Assembly: GCA_002495065.1 (NCBI GenBank)
Contig: DADT01000031.1
Location: forward strand, 80,996-120,995
Length of the DNA: 40,000 nucleotides
Source: Methanoregula sp. UBA471
GTDB lineage: Archaea; Halobacteriota; Methanomicrobia; Methanomicrobiales; Methanospirillaceae
Reading direction: 5' to 3'
The position numbers and the translations under genes are program-made. The notes under the pieces were generated by a model. The model did no database searches. It was not told the origin of the DNA and saw only the letters and a program-made list of their open reading frames with translations. This document shows positions 21,031-40,000 of the stretch, piece by piece; position 1 is the first letter of the stretch, and each line of letters begins with the position of its first letter.

Positions 21031-21053
21031 TAAGCCTCTTCTACTAGGTGTAG

Positions 21054-21830
21054 TTAGAATTTATTTAATTTTTTAATTTTCTCTCTTTCGTATAATTGGC
21101 TACCATCAGATATTAATTCGAAAAGGATATTAATGGCATAGCGGTTTTCGAAGCTTGTTTTTATTTGTGAGACATGGTTTGCGCCTTCACCAGAAATTAA
21201 AAGGGATGGTGCAAAATGGTTCCCTTTTTTCTTTCTTTTATTTTTTCGAAGAAAGTCAGGTTTTAACACATGAACGATTCCAATAAAGCTTCCAATTAGT
21301 TCTGGAAAAGGACTATAATGTTTAGCTTCTGCGAAGGTAATCAAATTCTCATTTGCGATAAAGTAAAATTTTTGTTTTTGATTTTGATAGAAGGATAAAT
21401 TTTGATCTGAAGAGATCTCAGACTGGGTCTGGTCCTCAAAAAAGTGGGAAATTACGATATCAGGAGTAAAAAAAATATTATTATCTGACTTCGATTGAAC
21501 TCGAACATTTTGCCTTATTGAGCAAATAACGGTAAATTTTTTTCCATTTTCTTGATAATCTTTTCTGGCAAGAAAAAAAGAGAAATTATTTGGATTTCCG
21601 GCTGGACTTAACTGATATACAAAATTGCCATTTCCTGAATCTGGATTTATCATGGTTATCTCGAAATCTTGATTTTGGTAAAATCGAACAGCATTATTAT
21701 AACAATTTATTTCGAAATATGTTGCAATCCGACGTACCTGATTATTGAGAACCTGCCCGAAATCTAGTAAATACTGATTGATGTCAACCATGAAATCTGT
21801 TGCTTCCCTAAACGGTGATTTCTCGGTCAT
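21054..21830 (-). CDS. hypothetical protein, candidate PD-(D/E)XK endonuclease
   Basis: FFTPDIVISHF is followed by ITFAEAKHY, a PD...ExK arrangement with longer than usual spacing. The gene has an ATGA overlap with the upstream 135-aa gene. Confidence 0.4.
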   Translation of the reverse strand: MTEKSPFREATDFMVDINQYLLDFGQVLNNQVRRIATYFEINCYNNAVRFYQNQDFEITMINPDSGNGNFVYQLSPAGNPNNFSFFLARKDYQENGKKFTVICSIRQNVRVQSKSDNNIFFTPDIVISHFFEDQTQSEISSDQNLSFYQNQKQKFYFIANENLITFAEAKHYSPFPELIGSFIGIVHVLKPDFLRKNKRKKKGNHFAPSLLISGEGANHVSQIKTSFENRYAINILFELISDGSQLYEREKIKKLNKF

Positions 21831-22234
21831 ATTTTTCTCTCTATCCTTTCAATACTTTTCATGAAATCCTCGATAGCCATATATTCCAAAATTTCAGCCG
21901 GAATGTTATATTTTTCAAGAATTTTTTTAAATTCAATCACCGTTTTGAATAGTTGCTTATTTTTTTCATGATTGAACTGTTTTTTTCCGACTTTTAACCC
22001 ATTTGCGCCAGCATTCATTAAACTATAAGAAAATGAAAGTGTTCCATCAATCGGTTTGATTATTCTTCGATATAATACACCCAAAAAAATCAGGTATTCA
22101 AGTGTTTTTCTCCGAGGTTTTTGTCTTTCTCTTGTTCTTAAAAAAAAATCTAATTCTTTGATTTTAAAATAGTATTCCGGTTCAATCTCCATCCTCAATT
22201 GGGGCGGAATCGATTTCCACAACTCATCATCCAT
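21827..22234 (-). CDS. hypothetical protein
   Basis: 135-aa ORF, 4-nt coupled to 21054..21830. No recognisable motif. Confidence 0.5.
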   Translation of the reverse strand: MDDELWKSIPPQLRMEIEPEYYFKIKELDFFLRTRERQKPRRKTLEYLIFLGVLYRRIIKPIDGTLSFSYSLMNAGANGLKVGKKQFNHEKNKQLFKTVIEFKKILEKYNIPAEILEYMAIEDFMKSIERIERKI

Positions 22235-22488
22235 ATAGGATAAATTAAAATGATCAAATAAATAATTTCGGGATAAGATGAGGAAATTTTTCTTAAATAA
22301 AAAGACGCTCTATGGAAAACCTTTTTTTCTTCGAAGAAAAAACGGCGACCAAAAGATCTAAGGTACAGTGCCTCCTTACTTGGTTATGTTATTAACGATT
22401 AAGGAGGCAAGATAATGTCAGCAAACCGGTATATCAGGTTTGTTGAAATTGTCTTCCGGATTTCCGGATTAAAATCCCAGAGAATCCG

Positions 22489-23076
22489 TCATGATTTAGT
22501 CAATTTTGAAAATTCTGGGACTATTGTCTGTAAATCTACTATCCTCACAGAATTCTGAAAGTCACTGAAATATTCGTTTACTGTAATGTATTTATCCTGA
22601 TATTTTTCAAAAAAAGACGCTGACAGGGCACGATCTTTGGATAAGACACTTTTGAGATCTCGACTGCTATTAAAAAATCGACTCGGATGTTCGATTCCTA
22701 TCACATATAGATATTTTTCAAGATTTCCGCCATTTTCCACAAGATTAAAAAAATCTTTAAAAAGAGAATTTTGTCGTATTGACTCAGGACCACCTCTCCA
22801 TGTTATAAACTTGAATTCCGCAACTCTTTTTGTTGTCTTCAAATCAAATTTTTTCCCGGTATTCCCTGCTCCTAATGATACATATTCGATTTTTTCTTCT
22901 GGTGATAAAATATATGAAAGTGAGACAAGAATTCCCCAGGCATGGATGATGGTGTTAATCTGGCCTACAATATACTTTATCTGAAGCGCTGCTTCAAGGA
23001 CATTTGGATCGAACTGACCTCGTTTCAATTGTTCACTGATTTCAATGAGATTTTTTTTATTGAAGTGAACTTTCAA
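22489..23076 (-). CDS. hypothetical protein, candidate PD-(D/E)XK endonuclease
   Basis: KFDLKTTKRVAEFKFI gives a D-x10-E-x-K arrangement inside a predicted beta-rich core. Confidence 0.4.
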   Translation of the reverse strand: MKVHFNKKNLIEISEQLKRGQFDPNVLEAALQIKYIVGQINTIIHAWGILVSLSYILSPEEKIEYVSLGAGNTGKKFDLKTTKRVAEFKFITWRGGPESIRQNSLFKDFFNLVENGGNLEKYLYVIGIEHPSRFFNSSRDLKSVLSKDRALSASFFEKYQDKYITVNEYFSDFQNSVRIVDLQTIVPEFSKLTKS

Positions 23077-23151
23077 AAACTGAAATTGTTTGACGAAGAT
23101 TGTGATTTATAGACAAATTTTCGATAGTCTCCAATCCATTTGACAAGTTGT

Positions 23152-24075
23152 TCATGATTTATCCTCTATTGATAGTTTTTGCTTTTCTGGTATTAAATCG
23201 CCGAGATCGAATATCTGAATCAACACTAAACCTTCGATTAAGTTGGAATCCGAAAGAGTCTTCACTGGCATCAAACTATTTTCATCGATTTTACTATCCA
23301 AATATGATTTTGAATAAGTCCTAAAATTTATCCCTGTGCGCCAGCTCTTTGGTATTTGTCTTCGGACAAAAATCGCAGCACCAAAGACCGGGCAACGCCA
23401 TTTTGCTGATGCTCCTGCAAAGCCTTTCCTGACAAAATCGACAACTCCCTTCGGACCAATCTCGTTATTCGGAACGAAGTAATGAACATGACTCAAGATT
23501 ACATCCGCTCCTGGGTTCACAAGATTCCACTGTTGTGGTCCATAGGTATCGTAACATATTGCAGGATAGAATCGAACACCGTTTAAGGAAAAAATTCTGG
23601 GTTTTCCGAAATATCCGTGTAAATAATCCGGAGAGAGATGAACCCGCTCTCGCTCTGTTTTGGTTAATACGTGAAACTTTCGACATGTTGCAATAATGCC
23701 GGCCTTATCAACAGCTATTGCAAGCTGGTCGACATCATATCCTTCCTCATCCATTGATCCATCGATCCCAAGACAGACAACAATATGAGCTGGAATTTTT
23801 TTCAAATTTCTTTTGATTTTTCCCTCGATGAATGGGAATAAAAAATCTGCTGGTTCTCTTCCATTGTGAAACCAACCGCCAGGAAACAGGATCACACCAT
23901 CACCTTGAGATTCCGATGAGATCTTGGAAATTATACGAAGAAGAGCCGCCATCCGGTCTTTAATCTGTGTTGCATTTTTTTGCGGACTACTATCGGGAAA
24001 TTTATCGTTAACGGTCTGTAAGGTAACGGTTGCGATCCACAGTTTTTTCTGAAATTCTTGTCGTTCTTTAATCAT
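23152..24075 (-). CDS. carbon-nitrogen hydrolase (nitrilase superfamily)-like protein, divergent
   Basis: The block order matches the C-N hydrolase layout: ...GVILFPGGWF... (the usual FPE Glu is Gly here), CRKFHVL (Lys block) and FYPAICYDTYGPQ (Cys block). The start is taken at Met 24075 to avoid a 62-nt overlap with queC; the track ORF extends to 24162. Confidence 0.45.
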   Translation of the reverse strand: MIKERQEFQKKLWIATVTLQTVNDKFPDSSPQKNATQIKDRMAALLRIISKISSESQGDGVILFPGGWFHNGREPADFLFPFIEGKIKRNLKKIPAHIVVCLGIDGSMDEEGYDVDQLAIAVDKAGIIATCRKFHVLTKTERERVHLSPDYLHGYFGKPRIFSLNGVRFYPAICYDTYGPQQWNLVNPGADVILSHVHYFVPNNEIGPKGVVDFVRKGFAGASAKWRCPVFGAAIFVRRQIPKSWRTGINFRTYSKSYLDSKIDENSLMPVKTLSDSNLIEGLVLIQIFDLGDLIPEKQKLSIEDKS

Positions 24076-24100
24076 GAAATGAAGCGAGTTATCGGAAAGA

Positions 24101-24793
24101 TCACTGATACTGTATGGGATCAACAGCCCCTGCTTCGCTGAATGCTGCCAATCGCTCATCACATGAGCCGCATTTTCCGCACGAGAGTTTTCCGCCTTTA
24201 TAGCAGGTCCACGTCATGGAGTAATCCACTCCTAACAAAATTCCTCGTTTCACGATATCGGCTTTTGTCCAATACAGATAAGGGACCTGAAGGATAACAT
24301 CGTTCCAGTCGCAGAGATGAAATGCCGTGCTCATCGCGCTAACAAACGCCGACCGGCAATCCGGATAAATGGTATGATCCCCCGCATGAGCTGCATAAAA
24401 GATTTCATTTGCTCCGATCCCGATGGCGTAGGAGGCTGCAAGACTCAGAAAAACCATATTACGGTTCGGAACTACTGTTTGTTTCATCGAGTCTTCTGCA
24501 TAATTTCCTTCTGGGACTTCCCATTGATCTCTGGTAAGGCAGGAGGGAGCCAGGTCGTTAAGGACCGATATATCCACGATTTTGTGGGGGATATGTAATT
24601 TTTTACAAATTTTCTTTGCACAGGTAATTTCGTTCTTATGCTTCTGGTTGTAGTCAAACGTGATTGCATGGACTTCGTACTTCTGGCTAATCAGATCATA
24701 TAGGAGTGTTGTGCTATCCATTCCACCGGAGAGAATAAGCACCGCTTTTATCGGTTTTTTTTCATTCATTTTTGGACTCATTTGCGATATCAT
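24101..24793 (-). CDS. queC: 7-cyano-7-deazaguanine (preQ0) synthase QueC
   Basis: PP-loop LILSGGMDS and C-terminal zinc cluster C...CGKCGSCDER at a typical length. Alternative starts at 24781 or 24769 would reduce the overlap with the upstream wHTH gene. Confidence 0.9.
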   Translation of the reverse strand: MISQMSPKMNEKKPIKAVLILSGGMDSTTLLYDLISQKYEVHAITFDYNQKHKNEITCAKKICKKLHIPHKIVDISVLNDLAPSCLTRDQWEVPEGNYAEDSMKQTVVPNRNMVFLSLAASYAIGIGANEIFYAAHAGDHTIYPDCRSAFVSAMSTAFHLCDWNDVILQVPYLYWTKADIVKRGILLGVDYSMTWTCYKGGKLSCGKCGSCDERLAAFSEAGAVDPIQYQ

Positions 24794-25031
24794 TCATGAT
24801 ATCTTCAAAATTCACTATATTTATCCGATAGAATTTTTTTGTACCATTCAATGGATCTTGACGTTTTGAGATATATCCGGATTTTCCAAGTCTTGATAAA
24901 ATTTGTCCCGTGTATCTGTCAGTATGATTTAAGTGTTTTACCGCATTTTGAAATTCGAATTCCTCGTAATTAAATTTTGAAAATAATTTTGAAAGATCTC
25001 TTAACAGGAATTTTTGAATGAAAGCGGCCAT
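24762..25031 (-). CDS. small winged-helix DNA-binding protein (putative regulator)
   Basis: 89 aa. YTGQILSRLGKSGYISKRQDPLNGTKKFYRI resembles a recognition helix plus wing. It is the first gene of the leftward queC operon. Confidence 0.45.
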   Translation of the reverse strand: MAAFIQKFLLRDLSKLFSKFNYEEFEFQNAVKHLNHTDRYTGQILSRLGKSGYISKRQDPLNGTKKFYRINIVNFEDIMNDIANESKNE

Positions 25032-25121: not shown

Positions 25122-26153
25122 ATGCTGTCTACATTGAAAACAATCGAAACACCTCATGGAAATATAGAGACTCCTTGTTTTTTCCCGGTATTCCATATTA
25201 ATAAAAGAGGTTCAGGATCCTGCCCGAAATACTGGAATGAAATTCCTGAACAGAAATCTATGCTGCTGAATGCATATGCGATAAAAAAATCCGAAAAGTT
25301 TAAACGAATTCTTTCGGGTGGCCTTGAAAATTATCTTCATTTCAAGGGAATTTTTTTTGTTGATAGCGGGGGACTACAAAGTCGGCTCTATAATATTCAG
25401 ATGGACCCTATTGAGATGCTCAGAATCCAGGAGAAAATAGGGGCAGATATTGCGGCCACATTAGATTTGCCTGTTCTTGTTAACGACAATATTTCTGCTT
25501 TCAATCACGCTGAACAGATTAAAACTACTGTCCGAAATGCAGTAACTGCATTGGAAAACCGTGAGCGCGAGGACATGCGCTTGTACGCTGTCATTCATGG
25601 TAATGATATCAAAGTCATGATCAATACAATCGACTATCTGAAAAAAAAAGGAGATTTTGATGGATATGCAATTGGGGGATTGATCTTCAAGCGATCAGAT
25701 TTTCGGACTTTGATAGATCTGATTATCGCTCTTCGAAAAAGAGCAGGTGAAAAACCACTCCATGTTTTTGGACTGGGGGGACCACTCATGATCCCCTTAT
25801 TGACCTATCTCGGTGTCGATTCTTTTGATTCGTCTTCTTATCTTTCCGCAGGTTCAAACCGTGTATATTTTGCCCCGGAATATGGTTCCTTCGAATTCCA
25901 GGAAATAAAACCTCTGCAGGTGCTTCCATGTGTTTGTCCGGTATGCAGTAAGAACACATTTGAAGAAATCCGTTCCCAAAGAAGGTTGATTGGTATGCAT
26001 AATTTGTGGATGATTGCGTATGAGTTACGGAAATTGAAGATGCACATTCAGGAAAATGATCTGGAACCTTATCTCGATTATAGATTCATGAATAACCCTC
26101 TCATTAAAGTTGCTTTCAAATATGCAAAAGGAAGAGTCAGGGGATTTGTATGA
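25122..26153 (+). CDS. TGT-family guanine transglycosylase, catalytic domain only (DpdA-like candidate DNA-guanine transglycosylase)
   Basis: HGNIETPCFFPV, the catalytic-Asp block FFVDSGGLQ, AIGGL, FGLGGP, VDSFDSSSY, and the zinc site CVCPVCS...HNLW. At 343 aa there is no C-terminal PUA or C1/C2 tRNA-binding extension. Confidence 0.75.
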   Translation: MLSTLKTIETPHGNIETPCFFPVFHINKRGSGSCPKYWNEIPEQKSMLLNAYAIKKSEKFKRILSGGLENYLHFKGIFFVDSGGLQSRLYNIQMDPIEMLRIQEKIGADIAATLDLPVLVNDNISAFNHAEQIKTTVRNAVTALENREREDMRLYAVIHGNDIKVMINTIDYLKKKGDFDGYAIGGLIFKRSDFRTLIDLIIALRKRAGEKPLHVFGLGGPLMIPLLTYLGVDSFDSSSYLSAGSNRVYFAPEYGSFEFQEIKPLQVLPCVCPVCSKNTFEEIRSQRRLIGMHNLWMIAYELRKLKMHIQENDLEPYLDYRFMNNPLIKVAFKYAKGRVRGFV

Positions 26154-26992
26154 GACTGACGATGCGCCCGGTCTCGCTCAGTCGTGTGGTTGAAACTGCA
26201 TTCTTTGCAGAGAAAACAAAAAAATTCACCAACCAGGAACTCGCCGGATTTTTGAAATCATCAGAAAGAAGGGCACGGGAAGTATCTGAAGAGACTGTCA
26301 ATATTGGATTGTTAAAAAAAGAAGAGACAACTTACCTGCCTACAGAACGATGCGCCGTTTTTCTTGAAAATATTCGAAAAAATAATTGGAAGGGCATTCA
26401 TGAACAGATGCTGGAGTATTCCTTTTACCAATCGTTTTATACAAATCTTCCGTCGATTGAACCGGCAACACCTGAAGAGATTCTCAAATCCCTATCATCC
26501 TCAACTATTCCCTTCAATGAGGCTTCCCGCCAGGTTCTGTGTGACTGGGGTGAACGAATCGGATCTCTCCAACGAAATATCTTTACGAACCAATATTTTA
26601 CGATAGCTGATTCCGAAATTATTCTTGCACCTGCATTTCTTGAAACCTATCAATTACTAAATGTCAAAACCGGATTGTCCCTCCGCCAGAGATACGTTGA
26701 GATACCTAGAATCCGGGAATACGTTTGTCAGAATTTGCGAATCTCACGGGAGATTTTTGATTTACGCTTTCTTGAGTTATGTATGAAAAATATTGGTAAA
26801 ATTGAGCTTGCCGGAGCTCCGGTGACTACGCATGCAAAGAAGTCTGCCAAAAAAGTAAAAAGTGTGCACTTCCTCGAACTACCTGACACAATAACGATGA
26901 AATTGTCATCAAATCAGTTTCTCAATGGCCTGACAGTTGGAAAAAAATCTTATTATTTTGTTGCATATCATGGCGGCGAACTTAATGACTGA
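26150..26992 (+). CDS. hypothetical protein (possible N-terminal wHTH)
   Basis: 280-aa ORF with an ATGA overlap to the TGT-like gene and an 8-nt overlap with the downstream ATPase gene. Confidence 0.55.
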   Translation: MRLTMRPVSLSRVVETAFFAEKTKKFTNQELAGFLKSSERRAREVSEETVNIGLLKKEETTYLPTERCAVFLENIRKNNWKGIHEQMLEYSFYQSFYTNLPSIEPATPEEILKSLSSSTIPFNEASRQVLCDWGERIGSLQRNIFTNQYFTIADSEIILAPAFLETYQLLNVKTGLSLRQRYVEIPRIREYVCQNLRISREIFDLRFLELCMKNIGKIELAGAPVTTHAKKSAKKVKSVHFLELPDTITMKLSSNQFLNGLTVGKKSYYFVAYHGGELND

Positions 26993-28166
26993 ATTTACCC
27001 TGACTCTGAAAGGAAAAGACTATGCTAAGTACGGCCTTCTGGGAAACCCTTTCCCATTCTCCGGCGTTCCGGATGAACATCCGAATGTCTATATCGGACA
27101 GGATGATGTTCTTGAGAAGATAAACTCTGTGTTATCGTCGACAGTTCTGTCATCACAATCGAATCATCTCATTGTAACCGGATCCTATGGTAATGGAAAA
27201 AGTCATACTCTGAAATTTATCAAATCACATATCAGAGACCAGTTTTCAGAAAAATCCGACACCAGGATTTGTGTAGGATATGTATCCCAACCCGGAGAGA
27301 CGTTTCTTGAGATTTATACCAAATTTATGTACGATTTGGGATATTCCTTTGTTAAGAATCTGTCTCAGACATATCTCGGTCATATTGCATTTCAACTATC
27401 AAAGGATGGACTGATTGAAGAAAAAATCCGAAAAGGGCAGGGTTGGAAAGCGATCGAAAAAGGGGATGTTCTTATTTCGGATATCGTTCCAAAAGCCATC
27501 CAGCGGTTGAATGACGGCATAAAATTCGTTGATTACACGAGGGCATTCATTGCATTATCGTATGAAGAAAATTCTATCTATTCCTGGGAGTGGCTCTGTG
27601 GGGAAGGTGTTGAATATAATAAACGACAGGAACTTTCTCTCGGAAAAAATATCAATGACATCAACTCAGTCCGAGCATTCGGTGCAATGAAATATGTGCT
27701 TAAAGAACTGGGTTTTTCTTCTCTCGTTTTGCTTATCGACGAATTTGAGTTTATTGAAACACTTCCACAATTAAAGAAACAAAAATTGCTCAATTCCCTG
27801 CGTCACATCATCGATCTCAATGGGGATAGGCTGTCAATTATTATTGCGTGTGCTCCAGAGGTCTGGCAAACAATTGTTGCTGAATACCATGCCTTTTCAG
27901 AGCGCATCGCAAAAGAGGCCAATCTGAAACCCATGGATCAGGAAAAGATCCGGTTGCTGTTGGTGTCATATCTGAACAATAAACGTACTAATCAGAGTGA
28001 TTCCCTGTTACCATTTACCGATGATTCAATTGAAAAAATATTTTTCCATTCACAGGGAAATACACGACGTATAATTTCCTTATGTAGTCAGGCCCTTGAT
28101 GCGTCCCTGGATTTCAATAAACCTCAAATCGATCAGGAGATTCTGGATTCGGTCATCGCCGGATAA
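26985..28166 (+). CDS. P-loop ATPase, ORC/Cdc6- or BrxC-like AAA
   Basis: N-terminal GLLGNPFPF, Walker A GSYGNGKSHT and Walker B VLLIDEFEF. The start is taken at ATG 26985; ATG 26970 and the track start 26937 are alternatives. Confidence 0.7.
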   Translation: MTEFTLTLKGKDYAKYGLLGNPFPFSGVPDEHPNVYIGQDDVLEKINSVLSSTVLSSQSNHLIVTGSYGNGKSHTLKFIKSHIRDQFSEKSDTRICVGYVSQPGETFLEIYTKFMYDLGYSFVKNLSQTYLGHIAFQLSKDGLIEEKIRKGQGWKAIEKGDVLISDIVPKAIQRLNDGIKFVDYTRAFIALSYEENSIYSWEWLCGEGVEYNKRQELSLGKNINDINSVRAFGAMKYVLKELGFSSLVLLIDEFEFIETLPQLKKQKLLNSLRHIIDLNGDRLSIIIACAPEVWQTIVAEYHAFSERIAKEANLKPMDQEKIRLLLVSYLNNKRTNQSDSLLPFTDDSIEKIFFHSQGNTRRIISLCSQALDASLDFNKPQIDQEILDSVIAG

Positions 28167-28243: not shown

Positions 28244-28645
28244 ATGCGAGCGAAATTATATAAAATTGTCACATTCGATGCCAGTCACCGGTTACTGTAT
28301 TATGTCGGAAAATGCAATCAGCTGCACGGGCATCACTGGAAAGTGGAAGTCTGGGTTGAGGGAAATGTTGATGAAAAGACTCAGATTGTCGTTGATTACA
28401 ACACAATAAAACAAGTCATTGAGCGGTTCGATCATATGGTAATTCTGAATAAGAAAGATCCTCTTGTAAGTTGTCTTGAAAAATATCAATCTGTGATTCA
28501 GGTAAATGGAGACCCTACGAGTGAATTGCTCGCATATCATATCAAAAATATTCTCGAAAATGATAGTGATTTCAAACGGACTGATGCGAAGGTAACGCGG
28601 ATAAAAGTATGGGAGTCACCGACCAGCTGTGCGGAGATTTCTTAA
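28244..28645 (+). CDS. queD: 6-carboxy-5,6,7,8-tetrahydropterin synthase QueD
   Basis: FDASHRL and CNQLHGHHWKVEV (catalytic Cys plus His-x-His zinc ligands), at 133 aa. Confidence 0.85.
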   Translation: MRAKLYKIVTFDASHRLLYYVGKCNQLHGHHWKVEVWVEGNVDEKTQIVVDYNTIKQVIERFDHMVILNKKDPLVSCLEKYQSVIQVNGDPTSELLAYHIKNILENDSDFKRTDAKVTRIKVWESPTSCAEIS

Positions 28646-32444: not shown

Positions 32445-32513
32445 ATCCTCGCCTTAGGTCTACCATTGATAACCATTATTTATTAATCTAATGAGTTGAG
32501 TTTATCATCTTTC
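32445..32513. promoter_or_regulatory. short divergent promoter region between the 983-aa ATPase operon and the NurA-HerA operon
   Basis: AT-rich spacer of about 50-70 bp (contains TTATTTATTAAT) between divergent starts. Confidence 0.3.
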
Positions 32514-33899
32514 ATGGTAGATTCTATGTCTGTGAGCTCGTATCTACCGACAAATGCGTATGATACCACACGATTGGGAGTAATTATTCGAGACTCTGAA
32601 GTTTTATTCTCTGAAAGTCGAGTAGAATGTGAGAGAACGATACGAGGAATAGATAATACGTTATCTGCGAATGCATCTTTAATCGATCCCGATTCAAATC
32701 CTTTAGAAAAAAGTAGAACTATAAAATTTGTTGCAATTGATGGAACTCGAGATATTCTTGAAGGCCAGTCACATGCACGATTATTTGCAGGTGCCTACGC
32801 AGTTTGCGGTTCATTCGAAGAAAAGGTGGATATAACTGAAATTGAAAGAGGATGTGCATTCAGCATCGTTTCTTTACCCTATAAAATTCTGACTTCTGGA
32901 AACGATTATGAAACTGAAAATGCTGGGACAATTGCAAATCTTCTCATGCTGCTCTCGGAGATTTTTGTAGCCCTGGATTATTCTGAAAAAAACGTTGATA
33001 TGATCCTCCTTGATCGTCCATTATGCGGAACCCTTGCCCATACTCGAACTAAGATGGCTGATAACAGTATCCTAAAAGAAATGGGTGCACGGAATATCAC
33101 CTCTAAAATAAAAATCGATGATCTAATGCCGATTTTTGACACATTGTGTAAAAGACTTTTTATTGACTCTCATCCCGAACCCCTTAAAATTCAAGACCGC
33201 TATCTTTCGAGCGACGATCTTATGTATCTTTGTCGTATAGGGATGGAGAAATTATTTCAGACCTGCCGAGAAAGAAATATCGACCTGATCGGAATTACAA
33301 AAACCACAAATGATTGCTCCTTTTTGCGAATGTTAATCACTATCCACTCAATTGAAAATTTATCAACGAAGAAAATTCGAAAAATTTTCTCGCAGATTGA
33401 TGATTGCCGAATGCTCGACATTTGGATAGAGCCCTATAAAAAAATAGTTTGTACACGAGAATATGATACAGCCTTAATGACCATAATGGTTGATGAATCA
33501 AAAACTGTCAAAGATATCGGTGGGGGAGGTGTAGCCCCCCGAAAAACCATTGTTCGTTCGTACATGAGTTTTGGACTAAAGAATAAAGGAGGATATGTCT
33601 TTGCTGTTGAACGACTTGTTTTAGTTGATGAAAAACCGCCCGTTCTTGTCCTCCCCGATCACTCTGAAATATTCCTTTTTACGATAGAGGGAAATACAAA
33701 ACAAAATACCATTTTTCACATTCTCAAAGGCATGTGTACAGGAGCATTTCCTGAAGCACTTTACTATCCATTGCCTCTAGCGTTATCTCATCGTTTTGCA
33801 AAATCAAATTTCGATTATGTTCGACCTCGATTGAAAGCATCGAGTTATGTGTTTGGAAGAGAGTATGGTTATAACGATGTAAAAAGGGGATTTACATGA
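32514..33899 (+). CDS. NurA-domain nuclease-like protein
   Basis: KFVAIDGTRD (NurA catalytic Asp block), MILLDRPLCG and DLIGITKTTN are collinear with NurA motifs. ATG 32514 is preferred over TTG 32496. The stop overlaps the herA-like start (ATGA). Confidence 0.6.
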   Translation: MVDSMSVSSYLPTNAYDTTRLGVIIRDSEVLFSESRVECERTIRGIDNTLSANASLIDPDSNPLEKSRTIKFVAIDGTRDILEGQSHARLFAGAYAVCGSFEEKVDITEIERGCAFSIVSLPYKILTSGNDYETENAGTIANLLMLLSEIFVALDYSEKNVDMILLDRPLCGTLAHTRTKMADNSILKEMGARNITSKIKIDDLMPIFDTLCKRLFIDSHPEPLKIQDRYLSSDDLMYLCRIGMEKLFQTCRERNIDLIGITKTTNDCSFLRMLITIHSIENLSTKKIRKIFSQIDDCRMLDIWIEPYKKIVCTREYDTALMTIMVDESKTVKDIGGGGVAPRKTIVRSYMSFGLKNKGGYVFAVERLVLVDEKPPVLVLPDHSEIFLFTIEGNTKQNTIFHILKGMCTGAFPEALYYPLPLALSHRFAKSNFDYVRPRLKASSYVFGREYGYNDVKRGFT

Positions 33900-35716
33900 A
33901 TGAAGAGATTATTGAGCGATTTAACATAGAAGGTCGTGTAATCAAAATTTCTGGAAGTGGAGCTGCGACCGTTATCGAAATTTTTTTCCCGTATACTAAA
34001 GAAGCAATTACAAACATATCTGAAGGAGCTTTTTTAGCGTTGGAAAATGTCAGGTCAAAGGCTGATAAGAAAATATTCTCGCTAGTAAATATTGTGAGTT
34101 ACGACATCTTTCATTCGGGTTTAACTGACTTGGATCCAACGAAAGTCCCATTTCCCGCTACTGTTGTGGAAGTTGCCTCTCGTGCTTTCAAAGAACTTGT
34201 AGAAGGAAATCCTGAAAAAATTAGTCTGGCTGGAATCAAAGTCAGATGCATTCTATCGGGATATGAAATTGTTGATGACCAAAAAAGAACGGTTAATCCA
34301 AGCACAGAAAAGCCCCTTATTGGATCCGAGGTATTTCATCCAACTGCATTCATTTTAAATAAAATTTTTAACCGTGGTCTTAACATTGAAAGTGGGGCTA
34401 TTGAAATTGGAGATTATCACCATGGTTTGGATAAGATTAGAATCTTATTAGAACCGAACGATTTGATTCACCATCATATTGGTGTATTTGCATCTACAGG
34501 AGCTGGGAAAAGTTTCCTCATTTCAAATCTTTTAAAGGAAACATTATCCAAAGGAAAGAGGGCCATTATTTTTGATACTGTTCCTGAGTTTCCCGCGTTG
34601 TTATTCGATGTAATTTATGATTATGTTATGAATCGTAACAATGATTATAAAATTGCATTAATTTTCAGAGATAAGCAAGATATTCTCGCCGTAAGTAGTG
34701 GTGAAGAGTTACTAAAACGGATAAACATTCCAGAACCGTTGCGTGAAAAATATCATGACAAAATGTTGAAAGTTTTTGAACAATTACGATGGCAGCGAGA
34801 ACCTATCCCAAAAATAATGCTCCCCTTACTAACATCCTCTGAAATTATCAATATGGTCAATTATTCCATGTCGATAAAACGTCTCCCCCAGGCAGAAACC
34901 GTTGCTCAGACTATTGAATATTTTATTGAAGACCGATATCCCGACGCAATTTTTGCTGGAAATGTAAAGGATCTTAAAAATTTTGTCTCAGATTACAAAA
35001 ATATCAATGACATCTTGAATTTCATCCAAGGCGAACGGGATACAATAGGAGATGATAAGAATATTACCTACAAATTTTACGAATCGACATATCAATTACT
35101 TCTTCATAAATCCGACCAACGAAATCTCATCTTAACAGATTATATCAAAGAAATCAACAATCAACATCTCGACAAAAACCAGGTTATCGAGCCACGGGAT
35201 CTCGTTCGACCCCTGCTTGATGGAGATATGAAATTACATATTGTGATTAGTGACATCAGTGATGATACAAAACATTTGATGTCCAATGCAATTTCTAACG
35301 CTTTTAATTTACAAAAAGGTAAAGCCAATAATAGTCTGATGTTCGTCGTCGATGAAGCTCATAATTTTGCGTCTATCGATCCCTCACCCAGCTCGAAGGC
35401 CATAGAGAAATTGGCACGAGAAGGACGAAAATATAAACTCGGTCTGTGTCTTGCTTCTCAACGTTGTACATATATGAATACAAGTGTTATGGCCCAACTG
35501 AAAACATATTTTATCAGCAACCTCCGAATGAAAACCGATAGAGACCGGATAAGACAGATTTTTGATATTAATTCAGAGATTCTTGATAGTTCAGTCAATC
35601 TTGGTGGGAAAGATTGGTATCTTGTGTCGGAAAAGGCTACTGGATTGAAGAATACACCGATTAAAATTCGGGTGTTTGACGTGAATGAAAGAATAGAGTC
35701 GATAATTAATTCATGA
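33896..35716 (+). CDS. HerA/DUF87-family ATPase
   Basis: N-terminal barrel-like EGRVIKISG, Walker A HIGVFASTGAGKSF, Walker B LMFVVDEAHNF, and GRKYKLGLCLASQR. Confidence 0.8.
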   Translation: MNEEIIERFNIEGRVIKISGSGAATVIEIFFPYTKEAITNISEGAFLALENVRSKADKKIFSLVNIVSYDIFHSGLTDLDPTKVPFPATVVEVASRAFKELVEGNPEKISLAGIKVRCILSGYEIVDDQKRTVNPSTEKPLIGSEVFHPTAFILNKIFNRGLNIESGAIEIGDYHHGLDKIRILLEPNDLIHHHIGVFASTGAGKSFLISNLLKETLSKGKRAIIFDTVPEFPALLFDVIYDYVMNRNNDYKIALIFRDKQDILAVSSGEELLKRINIPEPLREKYHDKMLKVFEQLRWQREPIPKIMLPLLTSSEIINMVNYSMSIKRLPQAETVAQTIEYFIEDRYPDAIFAGNVKDLKNFVSDYKNINDILNFIQGERDTIGDDKNITYKFYESTYQLLLHKSDQRNLILTDYIKEINNQHLDKNQVIEPRDLVRPLLDGDMKLHIVISDISDDTKHLMSNAISNAFNLQKGKANNSLMFVVDEAHNFASIDPSPSSKAIEKLAREGRKYKLGLCLASQRCTYMNTSVMAQLKTYFISNLRMKTDRDRIRQIFDINSEILDSSVNLGGKDWYLVSEKATGLKNTPIKIRVFDVNERIESIINS

Positions 35717-35726
35717 TTTACTACAG

Positions 35727-38138
35727 GTGCGAGAAATGATTCAATTTGATCAATTTAATGCACTAGTTCTTCAGGTTTTAGGAAAAAATATAACGCCTAC
35801 CGAGGATGAAGAACACCCTGGACAATATGAAGCCGTTAGCTCACCAATTAATCATTCATTATTCATTGTTGCTGGACCAGGAAGTGGAAAAACAACAGTT
35901 CTTACTTTAAAAGTTTTAAAACTAATTTTCCTTGATCGAATAGACCCATCAACGATATTAGTAACAACATTTACAAAAAAGGCTGCAGCGGAGTTGAGAT
36001 CAAATATTCTTCGCTGGGGGATTCGTTTAAAAAATGCATTTCTTGATTCCCCTCTAGACAATGACGATAAGAATTGGATATCATCATTAGATTTTAATTT
36101 AATCATTACAGGAACCTTGGATAGTATATCTGAATTGATGTTACGAGAATATCGTGATCCTGCAAATCCATCTCCAACGGTAATTGAAAATTTTATTGCC
36201 AGTTCAATTATGCTCAAGACCGGTCTATTTGAACAGGGTCTAGTTAATAATGCAGATTTAAAAAATTACGTTCATTCATTGTCTGATAAACCTCAACGAC
36301 CTAATGCGGCAGAAATAACTAAAACACTACTTGAAATCAAAGATCGATTATATCATGATCGTGTTAGATTTGATGATTATTGTCATGATCCTTCTCATCC
36401 AGGTATTGAACCTACATGTAGAGCTATTCGAGCTTATTGTCAAGAATTAGATCGTTTAGAACTCTATGACTATTCAAAAATTGAAAACCAATTTTATGAA
36501 CATTTGTGCGAAGAAAGATTTGATGATTTACAAGAAAAATTACGTTTTGTTTTAGTCGATGAATATCAAGATACCAATTTATTGCAAGAAAAAATTTACT
36601 TCAAACTTGCAGAAATTGCAATATCCAATGATGGAAGTATTACAGTTGTTGGTGATGATGACCAATCTATTTACCATTTTAGAGGCGCCACGGTTGATTT
36701 ATTTACCAACTTTCCAGCAAGAATAGAAGAGCGCCTATCTATTACTCCAGAGACAATATATCTTTCAAAAAATTATCGTTCTACCTCATCAATTGTAAAC
36801 TACATCCGAGATTTTGTCACAATTGATCCCGATTATCAAGATATGCGGGTTGAAGAAAAACCTGAAATTGAATATGCAAGAACAAGTCCTCACATTGATT
36901 TTCCAATTTTAGGTTTTTTTAGAGATGATCTTCAAACCCTTGCAAGAGATCTTGCATTATTTATCGATGATGTCACACACGATAATGGATTTAATTTCAC
37001 AATTAATGGGATACAATATCGGATCGCTTTGAATGCAAATCACGGATCACGTAACGATATTTGTTTTCTCTGTCATTCGCCACAAGAACGAAATTCCGCT
37101 AATACTGAGAACCGGTTACCTGGAGAGATTAGAAACCAATTGCTAGGACTTGAAAACCCTATTCATGTCTTCAACCCAAGAGGTCAGCCCCTTGAAAATA
37201 TCCCCGTCGTTCAACAACTTTGTGGCTTGATAATGCTATGTATAGATCCGACGAATCTTGCCAATTCACGCGGCGTATTTCCACGTCTTCCTCAATATGT
37301 AAGAACAATGATTCAAACATGGATACAGGAAGCCCAATTGCTTATTGCGGCAAATACTACGAGAGTCGGAGGAATTACCTTAGAAGACTATGTCCATGCA
37401 TGGCAAACAAAAATTCCAATTGGTGAATCTGGGAGTACATGGCGAAGAGATTCATCAATATTAGAATTGACGTATCATCTTGTTGCTTGGATACCAGAGA
37501 TGCAAGATGATGTGGAAGGTTTAGTATACCTTGAAGTAATTTTAAGAACAATAAGTCAATCTTCTGTTTTCTCTAGATATAAAAGCAGAATAATTTATGA
37601 TCCAACTCGACCGACAACGGAAACTGCGTCCATAAAAGATGCTGTTTGGTCAATTTTCGTTCCTATTGCCTCGGGTGTAATTGAAATAAATGAGGATCTT
37701 CTTGAAACTATTCCTAACAATAGAATACCAATAATGTCTATCCATCAAGCAAAAGGACTTCAGTTTCCATTAGTAATAGTTGATGTTGGAGCGGATTTTA
37801 AAATAGACCACCATTCTCAGAGATTTAGGAGATACCCTCAATCCGAAGATAAAACTTGCAGAATTGAAGATTCTTTAAGAGCTCACAGTGAATTAGACAT
37901 TCCCTCAAGAATCGGAGAAGACCGCTGTTTTGATGATTTATTTAGACTATATTTTGTTGCATACAGTAGACCACAAGACATTCTAATACTCACTGGACTT
38001 AATAGCGTCCGAAATGGTTATTTAAGAATAAGTAATCGACAGAATCCTATCGGAGAAATCCCCCATATTGCAACTGGTTGGACCCGTGATGGACAATGGA
38101 TTTGGGCTAGGGGTCTCAATAATTTATATCATATTTAG
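35727..38138 (+). CDS. UvrD/Rep/PcrA-type SF1 helicase
   Basis: Motif I AGPGSGKTTVL, motif II VLVDEYQDTN, motif III VVGDDDQSIYHFRGA, motif IV LSKNYRS, and the late motif IHQAKGLQFPLVIV. The start is GTG 35727 or ATG 35736. Confidence 0.85.
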   Translation: MREMIQFDQFNALVLQVLGKNITPTEDEEHPGQYEAVSSPINHSLFIVAGPGSGKTTVLTLKVLKLIFLDRIDPSTILVTTFTKKAAAELRSNILRWGIRLKNAFLDSPLDNDDKNWISSLDFNLIITGTLDSISELMLREYRDPANPSPTVIENFIASSIMLKTGLFEQGLVNNADLKNYVHSLSDKPQRPNAAEITKTLLEIKDRLYHDRVRFDDYCHDPSHPGIEPTCRAIRAYCQELDRLELYDYSKIENQFYEHLCEERFDDLQEKLRFVLVDEYQDTNLLQEKIYFKLAEIAISNDGSITVVGDDDQSIYHFRGATVDLFTNFPARIEERLSITPETIYLSKNYRSTSSIVNYIRDFVTIDPDYQDMRVEEKPEIEYARTSPHIDFPILGFFRDDLQTLARDLALFIDDVTHDNGFNFTINGIQYRIALNANHGSRNDICFLCHSPQERNSANTENRLPGEIRNQLLGLENPIHVFNPRGQPLENIPVVQQLCGLIMLCIDPTNLANSRGVFPRLPQYVRTMIQTWIQEAQLLIAANTTRVGGITLEDYVHAWQTKIPIGESGSTWRRDSSILELTYHLVAWIPEMQDDVEGLVYLEVILRTISQSSVFSRYKSRIIYDPTRPTTETASIKDAVWSIFVPIASGVIEINEDLLETIPNNRIPIMSIHQAKGLQFPLVIVDVGADFKIDHHSQRFRRYPQSEDKTCRIEDSLRAHSELDIPSRIGEDRCFDDLFRLYFVAYSRPQDILILTGLNSVRNGYLRISNRQNPIGEIPHIATGWTRDGQWIWARGLNNLYHI

Positions 38139-38153
38139 CCGGAGAGATTGATT

Positions 38154-39365
38154 ATGACGTTAACAAATCGAGAAACACCATATATCATTCCTGAATACAG
38201 CCTAACTGGGGATTTATTGAGTTATCAAGTCTGTCCTCTTCAGTATAGATATAATAATCGTGGGGCTCTTCCACCTTCGAAACCAGTTCAACTTTGGTTT
38301 GGAGAGTTTATTCATGGGATAATGGAAGAGTCATACAATCAATGGCGGGAAAATACCAATTTTCATGATTTTCCATGGGACTGGCTAATGGATATTCGAC
38401 CTTTAGAACTCACAATTAATCGCAGATTAAATGCCCGTGGCCTTAGTACACCTCGAAACCTATTGTGTCCTTATAATGACCAAGAGAATAGAGTAATGGG
38501 TTGTAGAGATAATCATCATCCCCATAAATTAATCGGAAGTCAGCGAGCGGATGTTGCGATAAATATGTGGGGAAAACACCTATTTCCGCTAGTTGATACA
38601 GCTGAAGTTAAGCTAAAAGGTTGTAGGGAGTTACATAGTCCTGAAACTGAACGCCGCTCTGATTATTATGGTATCACGGGTATTGCGGATGTAATAAGTT
38701 CAATTTCATTACGAGAAGCAGATGCCGATAATAAAATAATGCAATATTTGTCATCTGATCCAACGGTCAGAAATATGATGAGTGTGTATGAAGATGACGA
38801 ATTTGAAATAATTATTGATTATAAGGGGATGAGACGACCTTCAATTTTTGATAGCCCTAACCACCCAAATCAAACTTGGATTTCCCATGAATGGCAAATT
38901 CTCACATATGCTTGGCTTCGATCACATCAACCAGAATCAAAAAAACCAATCGCTGGGATTCTTTTTTATTTCGATGAATTAGTTCCAGCTTTAAAAGAGA
39001 TTCAATTTTTAAAGAAGGAGATTAGGGAAACCCGGACCGATATTATCCCATCAGATCCGAGTGATATTGATCTTTTAGGACGAACGAATCCACGATATAT
39101 CCGTGAACATTTAAGCAATGATTTAAGAGAGAGAAGATCTATCCGTGTTATCCCCATAACTGATGAGAGGATTGAAACGGCCCTTATGGAATTTGATACT
39201 ATTGTCGCAGAAATTGAGAAATCTGTTGTCAATGAGATACATACCGGACAAATTAAACAATGTTGGACCGCAAATGATTCTAATCCAGAAAATACTTGCA
39301 CTGTGTGTGATTCACGATATTTTTGCCCAAGGCAAAACAATCATTTTAGGATGACCGTTCCCTGA
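38154..39365 (+). CDS. Cas4/RecB-like PD-(D/E)XK nuclease with 4-Cys (Fe-S type) cluster
   Basis: N-terminal Cys in YQVCPLQYRY, GIADVIS, IIIDYKG (D-x-K), QILTYAW (QxxxY), and C-terminal C-x2-C-x5-C (CTVCDSRYFC). ATG 38154 has GGAGAG 8 nt upstream; the track start is TTG 38148. Confidence 0.7.
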   Translation: MTLTNRETPYIIPEYSLTGDLLSYQVCPLQYRYNNRGALPPSKPVQLWFGEFIHGIMEESYNQWRENTNFHDFPWDWLMDIRPLELTINRRLNARGLSTPRNLLCPYNDQENRVMGCRDNHHPHKLIGSQRADVAINMWGKHLFPLVDTAEVKLKGCRELHSPETERRSDYYGITGIADVISSISLREADADNKIMQYLSSDPTVRNMMSVYEDDEFEIIIDYKGMRRPSIFDSPNHPNQTWISHEWQILTYAWLRSHQPESKKPIAGILFYFDELVPALKEIQFLKKEIRETRTDIIPSDPSDIDLLGRTNPRYIREHLSNDLRERRSIRVIPITDERIETALMEFDTIVAEIEKSVVNEIHTGQIKQCWTANDSNPENTCTVCDSRYFCPRQNNHFRMTVP

Positions 39366-39433
39366 ACTATTAATTATTATTAACATTGTAACACAACCTT
39401 CTTTTGATTTAGTAGAGAATAATTCAATGAATC

Positions 39434-40000
39434 ATGCGCTTCTTTATTCCCGAATGGGACGACCGGGTCGACCCCGGTTATGATTTTCTTACCGATACTC
39501 ATTCGGCGTCACACCAAGCCAATCCTCTGAAAAATGATCACTATATGTGGGATATTTTTGGAATCGATAAAGTTCCCTTCGACGGCGTTCTTGTATCAAT
39601 TGCAACAATTCAACAGAATAGTAAAAAATATCATGCGATTTTAGACAATGGAATTCACCAATTCCTTCGCTTACCGCAAGATTTTGAGATTATTGCAGAC
39701 TGCGGCGCTTTTTCATATATTAAAGAAAAAATTCCCCCATATAAGACAAAGGATGTATTGAAACTCTACGGAGATTTGGGATTTAATTACGGAGTTAGTG
39801 TCGATCACCTCACAGTTCCGATGTTCAAAGAGCAGAATCAAGCAAGGATAAGAATCACGTACGAAAATGGAGTTGAGGCCTTCAATGAATGGAAATTGCA
39901 TTATAAAGAAAATTTTCAATTAATCGTTGCAGTACAGGGAGCAGAAATCTCTGACTATATGACAATGTTCAACAATTATTATCGGAGAGGTATCCGTCAT
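39434..40000 (+). CDS. second TGT-superfamily / DpdA-like transglycosylase, 3'-truncated by the window end
   Basis: Hand translation from ATG 39434 gives 189 codons with no stop through base 40000: MRFFIPEWDDRVDPGYDFLTD...IIADCGAFSYIKEK...VSVDHL. The ADCGAF block corresponds to the TGT catalytic DSGGFQ block. It is absent from the ORF track because it has no stop inside the window. Confidence 0.5.
   Translation, partial: MRFFIPEWDDRVDPGYDFLTDTHSASHQANPLKNDHYMWDIFGIDKVPFDGVLVSIATIQQNSKKYHAILDNGIHQFLRLPQDFEIIADCGAFSYIKEKIPPYKTKDVLKLYGDLGFNYGVSVDHLTVPMFKEQNQARIRITYENGVEAFNEWKLHYKENFQLIVAVQGAEISDYMTMFNNYYRRGIRH

Follow-up and report, generated by a model that had tools for sequence, protein, structure and literature searches.

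Does the AT-rich half of this DNA encode one 7-deazaguanine DNA modification-restriction system, and which of its genes would belong to it? The stretch analysed, hereafter the window, comprises 40,000 nucleotides (nt) of contig DADT01000031.1 of Methanoregula sp. UBA471. An original prediction, made from the sequence alone, had read everything right of about 21.04 kb as a single archaeal island with the logic of the bacterial Dpd systems. That logic was borne out: genes for 7-deazaguanine biosynthesis indeed accompany transglycosylases of DNA type as well as ATPases, helicases and nucleases. What the genes encode, which catalytic residues they keep, how the proteins fold, and how the genes are ordered and co-occur were compared, and together these lines suggest that the core of the island is probably a Dpd-type system of 7-deazaguanine DNA modification and restriction in an archaeal form. 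This conserved core begins with the 89-amino-acid (aa) and queC genes (~24.1 kb) and ends with DpdA at the right edge. Island proteins were scanned against Pfam, NCBIfam and PADLOC, to which family matches refer. The DpdA gene is cut by the window edge and was completed from public metagenome contigs of methanogenic hydrocarbon-degrading cultures, which extend the window rightward with 0 mismatches across an 11,847-nt overlap; positions beyond 40,000 are given as window-equivalents. The genes at issue are as follows.

24762..25031, minus strand: protein of 89 aa, divergent from the TGT operon (no family match)
24101..24793, minus strand: QueC, preQ0 (7-cyano-7-deazaguanine) synthase (TIGR00364 229 bits, cutoff 150.3; Pfam QueC 236 bits)
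25122..26153, plus strand: TGT-like short transglycosylase of 343 aa (Pfam TGT 136.8 bits)
26150..26992, plus strand: ORF280, predicted tandem winged-helix protein ending in a beta domain; coupled in translation to the TGT gene
26985..28166, plus strand: AAA+ ATPase of BrxC/BrxD-ORC type, 393 aa (Pfam BrxC_BrxD 52.3 bits; start position from public gene calls)
28244..28645, plus strand: QueD, 6-carboxytetrahydropterin synthase (Pfam PTPS 99.9 bits; TIGR03367 79.6 bits, cutoff 89.25)
35736..38138, plus strand: UvrD/PcrA-type superfamily 1 helicase of 800 aa (Pfam UvrD-helicase 155.9 bits, with UvrD_C)
38154..39365, plus strand: Cas4/AddB-like PD-(D/E)XK nuclease of 403 aa (Pfam PDDEXK_1 37.8 bits)
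39434..40000, plus strand: DpdA-DUF6884, first 189 codons of a 571-aa protein (gene end at window-equivalent 41,149)

Among the genes that the original prediction had named, QueC, the TGT, the AAA ATPase, QueD, HerA, UvrD, the nuclease and DpdA were confirmed; NurA and a hydrolase fell below family cutoffs, and the 89-aa protein, which had been called a winged helix-turn-helix protein, matched nothing.

The defining Dpd enzyme is present at the right edge. The in-window N-terminus alone scores 138 bits over half of the DpdA model, and the full-length edge protein reaches 320 bits against NF041059 (cutoff 200), so that the predicted second TGT/DpdA-like gene turned out to be a genuine DpdA with a DpdC-like domain in addition. 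It aligns with the DpdA of Salmonella Montevideo (7UI4) at E 6.5e-57 and keeps the equivalents of Asp95, Asp130 and Asp256 together with the CxCxxC...H zinc ligands, residues whose roles in DpdA have been described (PMC10164549). Its C-terminal domain belongs to DUF6884 (63 bits) and matches YaaA/DUF328 weakly (23 bits, under the cutoff). PDB sequence searches with this domain, by single sequence and by profile, gave nothing usable. In fold comparison, its AlphaFold2 model (predicted local distance difference test score, pLDDT, 87.9) retrieved Escherichia coli YaaA (5CAJ; E 8.3e-5, probability 1.0) as the top PDB match. The second-best match was AF0587 (2Q07), which we take to be related to the C-terminal part of ArcS. 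A DUF328 protein, DpdC, carries out the conversion of dPreQ0 to dADG (PMC5699537, PMC12839542). Given the fold match of the modelled domain to YaaA, itself a DUF328 protein, the edge protein is best read as a DpdA carrying a DpdC/YaaA-like domain. The island has no stand-alone DpdC, and the DUF6884 domain fused to DpdA is the sole DpdC-like candidate. A search of the DpdA family gave 3,355 hits; NCBI already labels archaeal fusion proteins of this kind 'DpdA', and in haloarchaea the DpdA-type gene encodes a 966-aa protein with a DpdA-like N-terminus and DUF6884, directly upstream of the TGT-like gene. The fusion suggests a role for a Pfam domain that has so far been uncharacterised.

In addition to DpdA, the core encodes a second transglycosylase within a trio of TGT-like, ORF280 and ATPase genes. 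The 343-aa protein aligns with the archaeal TGT (arcTGT) of P. horikoshii (1IQ8; E 9e-38) over residues 25-347 of 582, and the alignment ends where the tRNA-binding C1, C2 and PUA domains of arcTGT start. The two Asp motifs and the zinc site of the TGT catalytic core are all present: DSGG, GVDxFD and CxCxxC...H (C270/C272/C275/H293) are invariant across 20 aligned members of the TGT-like family, and lengths across all 96 members, down to 37% identity, range from 271 to 359 aa. Judged by these alignments, the protein is an arcTGT-type catalytic core minus the tRNA-binding domains. Its assignment to the TgtA equivalog itself was rejected, with 198 bits against TIGR00432 (cutoff 350) and no C1, C2 or PUA domain; the DpdA model gives 34 bits. 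ORF280 has no sequence match in Pfam, NCBIfam, PADLOC or the PDB. Its AlphaFold2 model (pLDDT 87.9, predicted template-modelling score 0.83) shows a winged-helix array followed by a beta domain, with the four-winged-helix C-terminus of SelB as the top fold match (1LVA, E 6.6e-4), MarR-type domains next, and generic winged-helix matches only in a BFVD fold search. The model therefore points to a tandem winged-helix protein that resembles nucleic-acid binders. The 393-aa ATPase has the Walker A motif GNGKSHT and the Walker B motif LLIDEFE and matches BrxD at domain level (NCBIfam 37.5 bits, cutoff 350; PADLOC E 1e-10). It is the sole candidate ATPase beside the transglycosylases.

The preQ0-synthesis genes of the island are QueC and QueD; QueE and FolE are not in the island. 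QueC is of the canonical type, scoring 229 bits against TIGR00364 versus 28 bits against QatC. In many haloarchaeal loci FolE is confirmed, with a 257-aa family read as QueE, and a Bathyarchaeota locus (L104) carries radical-SAM QueE-type and GCHY-1 genes.

Chance juxtaposition had been named as the outcome that would undo the original prediction, and the gene neighbourhoods argue against it. A profile search with the 343-aa family in species-representative genomes returned 64 archaeal loci. About 50 species of Halobacteria are represented, with some of the loci on plasmids, besides Methanoregula, Methanosarcina, Bathyarchaeia and Aenigmatarchaeota; homologues of the island genes were counted within 10 kb of the TGT-like gene. 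The trio is kept almost without exception, with ORF280 in 62/64 loci and the ATPase in 63/64. A DpdA-type gene lies within 10 kb in 54/64 loci, and 6 of the 10 misses are due to short contigs or to an inserted block that shifts DpdA past 10 kb. QueC or QueD occurs in 41/64 loci (QueD 38/64, QueC 35/64). Counts fall off for the remaining genes: UvrD 11/64, the nuclease 6/64, NurA, the 983-aa, the 276-aa and the hydrolase genes 2/64 each, the 258-aa gene 1/64, and the 135-aa, the 195-aa and all right-flank genes 0/64. The closest relatives of the island belong to Methanoregula or Methanoregulaceae. In four Methanoregula loci (L010, L011, L014, L015) TGT, ORF280, ATPase, UvrD, nuclease and DpdA follow one another on one strand as a compact operon, with gaps of at most 99 nt in L010. 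Rearranged versions of this set were seen in Bathyarchaeia (L017, L104), Nitrososphaeria (L106) and Halobacteriales (L020), often with FolE, QueD, QueE and QueC alongside. Viewed from the DpdA-DUF6884 genes, two arrangements emerged. The Methanofollis formosanus chromosome places the trio ~17 kb away from DpdA, across a five-gene helicase/ATPase/nuclease block, with a UvrD-nuclease pair downstream of DpdA. DpdA of Methanoculleus horonobensis and Methanofollis liminatans is likewise bordered by this five-gene block and by a UvrD-nuclease pair; the analysed flank ends inside the block, and the trio was not seen within it.

Some replicons hold two copies of the trio, namely the Salinibaculum rarum chromosome (L021, L042) and a Halospeciosus flavus plasmid (L038, L067), and further plasmid-borne copies were seen in L022, L046 and L064. 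Doubled and plasmid-borne copies point to mobility and possibly to several specificities per cell.

Viruses offer a parallel. Two IMG/VR contigs (L091, 7,000-13,500; L092, 7,200-10,800) have QueD, a QueC that is 62-66% identical to that of the island, and a TGT-like gene with 33-36% identity. L091, the contig of the two that was scanned for further families, also has a stand-alone DUF6884 protein of 142 aa, and its TGT-like gene is followed by ParB-like, PAPS-reductase-like, family-B DNA polymerase and clamp loader genes. That such a TGT-like gene is part of a replication module is consistent with this enzyme clade acting on DNA, and the L091/L092 module may be a viral counterpart of the cellular one. 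A terminase large-subunit gene (Terminase_6N) was also found in L104 (121-1,539), ~2.5 kb from FolE2-QueD-QueC-QueE and ~5.9 kb from the TGT trio, and this Bathyarchaeota Dpd-like cluster may lie in or beside a provirus.

We then asked what the helicase and nuclease genes contribute. From NurA through HerA, UvrD and the nuclease to DpdA the genes share one direction, spaced by -4, 19, 15 and 68 nt (UvrD and nuclease starts from public gene calls), and the nuclease has IIDYK and C-x2-C-x6-C, an apparent Cas4-like cysteine cluster. The UvrD and nuclease of the M. formosanus island are 53% and 49% identical to those of the window, and the pair in the compact Methanoregula operons just 23-27% (UvrD 26-27%). 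Four bacterial loci, from Verrucomicrobia (L073), a proteobacterium (L075), Vicinamibacterales (L076) and Polyangiaceae (L080), have the pair beside distant TGT-like genes, both genes being 32-38% identical to those of the window and UvrD alone 37-38%; in L075 and L076 a HerA gene follows the pair. The nuclease is 32-49% identical to the copy in L008, which comes with UvrD, and to the bacterial copies in L073-L076 and L080, among which L074 has the nuclease without UvrD. One locus, L089, shows the gene order of the window with a 26%-identical UvrD-nuclease pair in the same slot between HerA and DpdA, which is expected of an exchangeable component and not of a random neighbour. L102 arranges the genes as NurA-HerA-DpdA-UvrD-nuclease. 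Elsewhere in archaea, the islands have other sets beside DpdA: a DpdJ-like DEAD helicase (204 bits; L012, L008) accompanied by an AAA_22 ATPase and a PD-(D/E)XK-AAA_12 protein, a DEAD/MZB helicase of 1,847 aa beside a PLD protein, or a HerA-like ATPase with an AAA_16 ATPase. The view that the restriction side is entirely different from that of bacteria thus holds for the window, which has no DpdD-K, and fails for the sister islands with their DpdJ-like helicase or PLD and DEAD/MZB helicase. This pattern is that of a single modification core with exchangeable effector modules. Bacterial dpd clusters are equally variable for dpdE, F, J and K (PMC5699537).

These parts can be arranged into a proposed pathway, in which we infer every biochemical step, DNA as the substrate, the product and restriction. 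Island QueD and QueC, with host GTP cyclohydrolase and QueE, would boost the supply of preQ0. The DpdA domain would swap guanine in double-stranded DNA for preQ0, and the fused DUF6884 domain would convert the nitrile in DNA, most likely to the amide (dADG). In bacteria, DpdB is a ParB/DndB-like ATPase whose ATPase activity is needed by DpdA (PMC10164549). Here the trio may stand in for DpdB as an ATP-driven, DNA-binding loading or targeting machine, and may add a second transglycosylation. UvrD and the Cas4-like nuclease would form the restriction effector against unmodified DNA, preceded by NurA-HerA in the same operon; the 276- and 983-aa proteins would have arrived with NurA-HerA and may act as a sensor or regulator. 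Compared with the dpdA-K cluster of Salmonella enterica serovar Montevideo, the island has a DpdA with the same catalytic aspartates and zinc site, a domain with a probable DpdC-family fold, preQ0 genes in the cluster, a horizontally acquired island of ~20 kb, and variable helicase/nuclease genes beside the modification genes. In contrast to that cluster, the DpdC-like domain is fused to DpdA and is DUF6884 rather than DUF328 proper, the invariant trio of arcTGT-derived transglycosylase, tandem winged-helix protein and BrxD/ORC-like ATPase is added, the effectors are UvrD, Cas4-like nuclease, NurA and HerA, and the host is archaeal.

Four further genes lie between QueD and UvrD and bear most directly on how much of the island belongs together.

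28662..29492, minus strand: protein of 276 aa, partner of the 983-aa protein (no family match)
29493..32444, minus strand: protein of 983 aa with an N-terminal P-loop ATPase and a long helical region (no family match)
32496..33899, plus strand: tentative NurA-like nuclease (Pfam NurA PF09376 17.7 bits)
33896..35716, plus strand: HerA/FtsK-type hexameric ATPase-translocase (Pfam DUF87 PF01935 50.8 bits, cutoff 23.2; PADLOC HerA 116.6 bits)

The 276-aa gene always adjoins the 983-aa gene (window, L089, L102, L009, L013). The 983-aa protein has Walker A GEPSSGKT and Walker B VVIHLDEVED and resembles the AAA_22 family of 1118 aa in sister islands in the ATPase core alone (hhalign probability 54-56%). 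Its family is rare, with 8 representatives among 1.84 billion proteins, and every context seen is one of these islands; a viral scan with the protein found nothing. Small-protein and AAA+-ATPase pairs recur beside DpdA in other lineages. Their small proteins (258-268 aa in Methanofollis, Methanoculleus and Methanosarcina, 253 aa in Nitrososphaeria) were tried as homologues of the 276- and 258-aa proteins and rejected, all hhalign probabilities being 0.7% or less. The HerA member of a NurA-HerA pair is present. Beside it, the NurA-like protein shows an AIDGT motif, and a PDB profile search returned no match for it; the end of its gene overlaps the beginning of HerA by 4 nt, and the two travel together in L089, L102, L013 and L009. 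NurA-HerA stands in one operon with UvrD, nuclease and DpdA in the window, L089 and L102, which makes integration of this block into the system plausible.

Several findings weigh against a Dpd-like system of this kind. Within DpdA, the equivalent of His181 is Gln, and the fold match of DUF6884 to YaaA reaches template-modelling scores of just 0.32-0.48. No island protein matches a DpdB, DndB or ParB model of Pfam, NCBIfam or PADLOC, and PADLOC reported no DpdD-K model for them, in the case of UvrD among the best 25 of 51 matches. DNA is a presumed substrate of the 343-aa enzyme, which might instead act on tRNA or on a protein, and protein-modifying enzymes of the TGT family do exist in defence (Cap10; bioRxiv 10.1101/2025.04.06.647259). 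Most haloarchaeal loci are without the UvrD-nuclease pair within 10 kb, so the core may be a modification module that teams with varying neighbours. The NurA score of 17.7 bits is below the Pfam cutoff of 21, with the match covering model positions 4-253 of 254. The 276/983/NurA/HerA block is absent from the compact operons and has a separate history. A metagenome scan anchored on NurA returned two near-identical loci only, the source of the comparison with L089, in which the four genes of the block are 92-95% identical to those of the window and the flanking TGT module and DpdA 69-83%. HerA clusters at 90% identity or more are, moreover, common to contigs whose DpdA is just 60-92% identical. 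Both observations indicate that the block moves or is conserved as a unit. Finally, two genes are broken in one population variant, the 983-aa gene into pieces of 160 + 729 aa and the HerA gene into pieces of 441 + 162 aa; the variant sequences (L003 and L100, JGI 3300001567 Draft_10000720) are otherwise near-identical, and gene decay or assembly errors could underlie the splits.

The same observations could be taken to mean that the island is a mosaic defence hot spot, in which an independent deazaguanine module, NurA-HerA with the 276/983 pair, UvrD with the Cas4-like nuclease and small cassettes sit together with no coupling of modification to nuclease. We consider this unlikely. It would account for the three levels of identity to L089 (69-83% in the TGT module and DpdA, 92-95% in the block, 26% in UvrD and nuclease), for the HerA genes shared by contigs with diverged DpdA, and for the missing UvrD-nuclease pair in most haloarchaeal loci. 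It would likewise fit a GC content that varies by module, from 0.39-0.41 in the TGT module to 0.30 over 29-31 kb (the 276-aa gene and most of the 983-aa gene), the unconserved left cassettes and right-flank genes, and the type IV restriction enzyme, HTH-M78/PIN pair and NERD helicase that flank the island. However, unlinked modules would hardly give the trio and UvrD-nuclease-DpdA in single tight operons in several lineages, nor window-type UvrD-nuclease genes, with HerA, beside TGT-like genes in distant bacteria. The different pair in the same slot of L089 and a 983-aa family found solely in these islands also count against independent modules.

Could the trio act on something other than DNA, placing 7-deazaguanine on a protein, as in Cap10 of type IV CBASS, or on tRNA or another RNA, and so tune the effectors? 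The 343-aa enzyme is nearest to tRNA enzymes (TgtA 198 versus DpdA 34 bits), defence proteins of the TGT and QueC families that act on proteins are known (bioRxiv 10.1101/2025.04.06.647259; PMC13376578), and the trio is coupled so tightly (62-63/64) that one partner could be the substrate. These points are outweighed, making this reading very improbable: the enzyme lacks C1, C2 and PUA, the domains by which arcTGT grips tRNA (PMC5699537), QueC is canonical with no CD-NTase or Qat partner, ORF280 is predicted to be a multi-winged-helix protein like nucleic-acid binders, a DNA transglycosylase is nearby in 54/64 loci, and related TGT-like genes stand in viral replication modules.

The bacterial dpdD-K genes contribute to restriction (PMC10164549), as the exchangeable sets would in the Dpd-like system favoured here. 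The sets beside DpdA (UvrD/Cas4-like, DpdJ-like, PLD with DEAD/MZB, HerA) are composed like restriction modules. A modification without restriction, kept for self-protection against deazaguanine-insensitive nucleases, as an epigenetic mark or as a virus legacy, with the helicase-nucleases repairing abasic or nicked intermediates of base exchange, is highly improbable, even though NurA-HerA and UvrD are repair-type machines, many haloarchaeal loci consist of DpdA-type, trio and preQ0 genes and show nothing recognisable as a nuclease within 10 kb, and viral contigs use related genes for their own DNA.

If the Dpd-like reading of the core is extended to its relatives, a broader proposal follows, which we put forward tentatively. 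Many archaea, cultured haloarchaea and methanogens among them, might replace guanines of their own chromosomes with 7-deazaguanines via a machine of two transglycosylases, with the trio doing the job of DpdB; DUF6884 would make the final base, which may differ from dADG and might be archaeosine in DNA, and exchangeable resection modules (UvrD/Cas4-like, NurA-HerA, the 983-aa ATPase) would recognise the mark and destroy unmarked DNA. In the literature searched, documented cases of 7-deazaguanine in DNA are bacteria with dpd islands, phages and archaeal viruses. In the searchable, incomplete literature we found no description of the trio, of the fusion, of the archaeal distribution, or of 7-deazaguanines in archaeal cellular DNA. 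If true, the proposal would give Archaea their first cellular DNA epigenome based on 7-deazaguanine, and base exchange would be coupled to restriction in a new way. More than 60 species of archaea have the gene set, among them several in culture and some with plasmid-borne copies, which makes the question of archaeal DNA hypermodification directly answerable. The set also poses a missing-component problem: bacterial DpdA depends on DpdB, which the island lacks, and another ATPase, together with a winged-helix partner and a second transglycosylase, is always there. Moreover, interchangeable helicase-nuclease sets on one modification core form a natural experiment that could show how restriction is matched to the mark.

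The island was also compared with other known systems. The archaeosine pathway (arcTGT/TgtA, ArcS) likewise uses preQ0, and the 343-aa enzyme keeps the arcTGT core motifs; in contrast, its gene product has no C1, C2 or PUA domain and the gene sits in a defence-island operon with DNA-type partners. Viral deazaguanine modules (DpdA1-DpdA4 with QueC, QueD, QueE and FolE) also join a transglycosylase to preQ0 genes and modify DNA after replication (PMC6884629, PMC10516641). The island differs from them in being cellular, in its attached helicase-nuclease modules, and in a DpdA of the bacterial type (bDpdA model) and not of DpdA1-4. BREX-related capture (BRC) systems, with HerA/FtsK, GNAT and TGT, share the TGT homologue, the HerA/FtsK translocase, ORC/BrxC-like ATPases and multi-domain DNA-binding proteins (PMC12839542), and their authors likewise propose an NTPase in place of DpdB (PMC12839542). 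BRC was rejected as an assignment, with no match to PglZ, DUF6079, DUF4007, STAND NTPase or GNAT; the island, for its part, adds a true DpdA, the DpdC-like domain and QueC/QueD. BREX was rejected as well, with a domain-level match of the ATPase only (BrxD 37.5 bits, cutoff 350) and no PglZ, PglX or BrxA/B. Type IV CBASS (Cap9/Cap10) and QatABCD are defence systems with QueC-like and TGT-like enzymes too, but theirs act on proteins and their QueC homologues are divergent. Both were rejected, with no CD-NTase or QatA/B/D match and 21 bits against the PADLOC CBASS TGT model. For the UvrD helicase, the best 25 of 51 PADLOC matches are all GajB or RTasHel. Gabija was rejected, since the GajB matches reflect the generic UvrD core, there is no GajA/OLD nuclease, and the neighbour is of PD-(D/E)XK type. 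NurA-HerA and AddAB/RecBCD-type resection machines are echoed by HerA with an adjacent NurA-like protein and by a UvrD-family helicase with a Cas4/AddB-like nuclease. In the island, unlike those machines, the genes are in an operon with a DNA transglycosylase and not at the Mre11-Rad50 locus, and the NurA assignment is weak.

As for the island as a whole, its composition and operon layout were as first described. In 1-kb windows, the mean guanine-cytosine (GC) content steps at 21.04 kb from ~0.50 (1-21,000) to ~0.36 (21,001-40,000), and no 1-kb window right of 21 kb exceeds 0.41. The break falls between the stop of a 1045-aa gene (20,973) and the first island open reading frame (ORF; 21,054). 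On the right, low GC (0.33-0.39) runs to window-equivalent ~41,150, exactly at the stop codon of the edge-cut DpdA gene, so that the AT-rich stretch outlasts the window by ~1.15 kb; GC is 0.40-0.46 past that point and at least 0.5 beyond window-equivalent 44.2 kb. The ORF map resolves the in-window part into four alternating blocks.

21,054-25,031, minus strand: block 1
25,122-28,645, plus strand: block 2
28,662-32,444, minus strand: block 3
32,496 to the window end, plus strand: block 4

As had also been predicted, methyltransferase, integrase and transposase families gave no match to any protein of the island. The window contains no tRNA gene and no Rfam family, and the island ends are without a flanking direct repeat of 11 nt or more. 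The AT-rich stretch from 21,040 to ~41,150 is probably a horizontally acquired defence island of a Methanoregula-like methanogen. A neighbouring host gene belongs to a protein cluster in which the single member with a named organism comes from Methanoregula sp. Six of its proteins (258, 135, 195, 89, 276 and 983 aa) are without any family match. The claim that the whole of it is one system could not be upheld: the 258- and 135-aa pair recurs once (L015), the 195-aa protein has no homologue in related loci, and the 276/983/NurA/HerA block has its own history. The genes left of the core are listed here.

21054..21830, minus strand: ORF of 258 aa (no Pfam, NCBIfam or PADLOC match)
21827..22234, minus strand: ORF of 135 aa, overlapping the start of the 258-aa ORF by 4 nt (no family match)
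22489..23076, minus strand: ORF of 195 aa (no family match)
23152..24162, minus strand: nitrilase-superfamily-like protein of ~335 aa, downstream of queC (CN_hydrolase 18.1 bits, under the cutoff of 23.2)

The first three had been described as two nuclease-like cassettes; no family model matched them, and the label comes from short D...E-x-K-like strings in their sequences alone. Among ~100 related loci, the 258-aa protein has one homologue, in L015 (29% identity, E 8e-27), directly downstream of DpdA, where a weak homologue of the 135-aa protein (E 3e-6) adjoins it. The two-gene cassette thus lies at 21,054-22,234 in the window and at 18,355-19,546 in L015, on the opposite side of the system. 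It looks like a small mobile cassette aimed at the same neighbourhood, and the 258-aa ORF is probably part of a separate cassette rather than a core component. The 195-aa ORF has zero homologues across the related loci. We regard the three leftmost genes and those beyond DpdA as defence hot-spot neighbours outside the system.

Next to queC, the nitrilase-like protein occurs in the window, L089, L090, L013 and L009 only. Its RK(F/Y) (Lys) and ICYD (Cys) motifs are invariant, and an invariant FPGGW replaces FPE with its catalytic Glu; a profile search of the PDB found no sequence relative. It appears to be an accessory gene of the closest relatives and, if active, could target the preQ0 nitrile. 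Homologues of the 89-aa protein occupy the same position in L007 and L009-L015, and an unrelated 96-aa gene takes that slot in 10 haloarchaeal loci; the protein is presumed to be a regulator.

Further defence-type genes border the island. Directly to its left, in host-like GC, a gene at 17,836-20,973 (plus strand) encodes a protein with PLD, superfamily 2 helicase and DUF3427 domains that scores 706 bits against the PADLOC model of a type IV methyl-directed restriction enzyme. In Methanoregula L011 the Dpd-like operon has an 83%-identical copy on that side too, and L015 has a C-terminal remnant. This recurrence suggests either that the insertion site is shared or that a modification-dependent nuclease is repeatedly paired with the deazaguanine island. 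Beyond DpdA, in DNA of intermediate GC (0.40-0.46; L001 13,125-18,061, window-equivalent 41.3-46.2 kb), follow an HTH_3 + Peptidase_M78 protein (spr1629-family antitoxin model, 105 bits), a PIN-like DUF3368 protein and an EEP-family nuclease, and at host-like GC a NERD + UvrD_C helicase. These right-flank genes of defence or toxin-antitoxin type are conserved in none of the related loci. Further left, the public gene calls place at 17,215-17,805 (plus strand) a bacterial-type RNase III with a double-stranded RNA-binding domain (Ribonuclease_3 + dsrm), an enzyme uncommon in archaea. Finally, a local GC peak of 0.58-0.59 lies at 8,001-10,000, with many overlapping ORFs on both strands around a 506-aa ORF (7,942-9,462).

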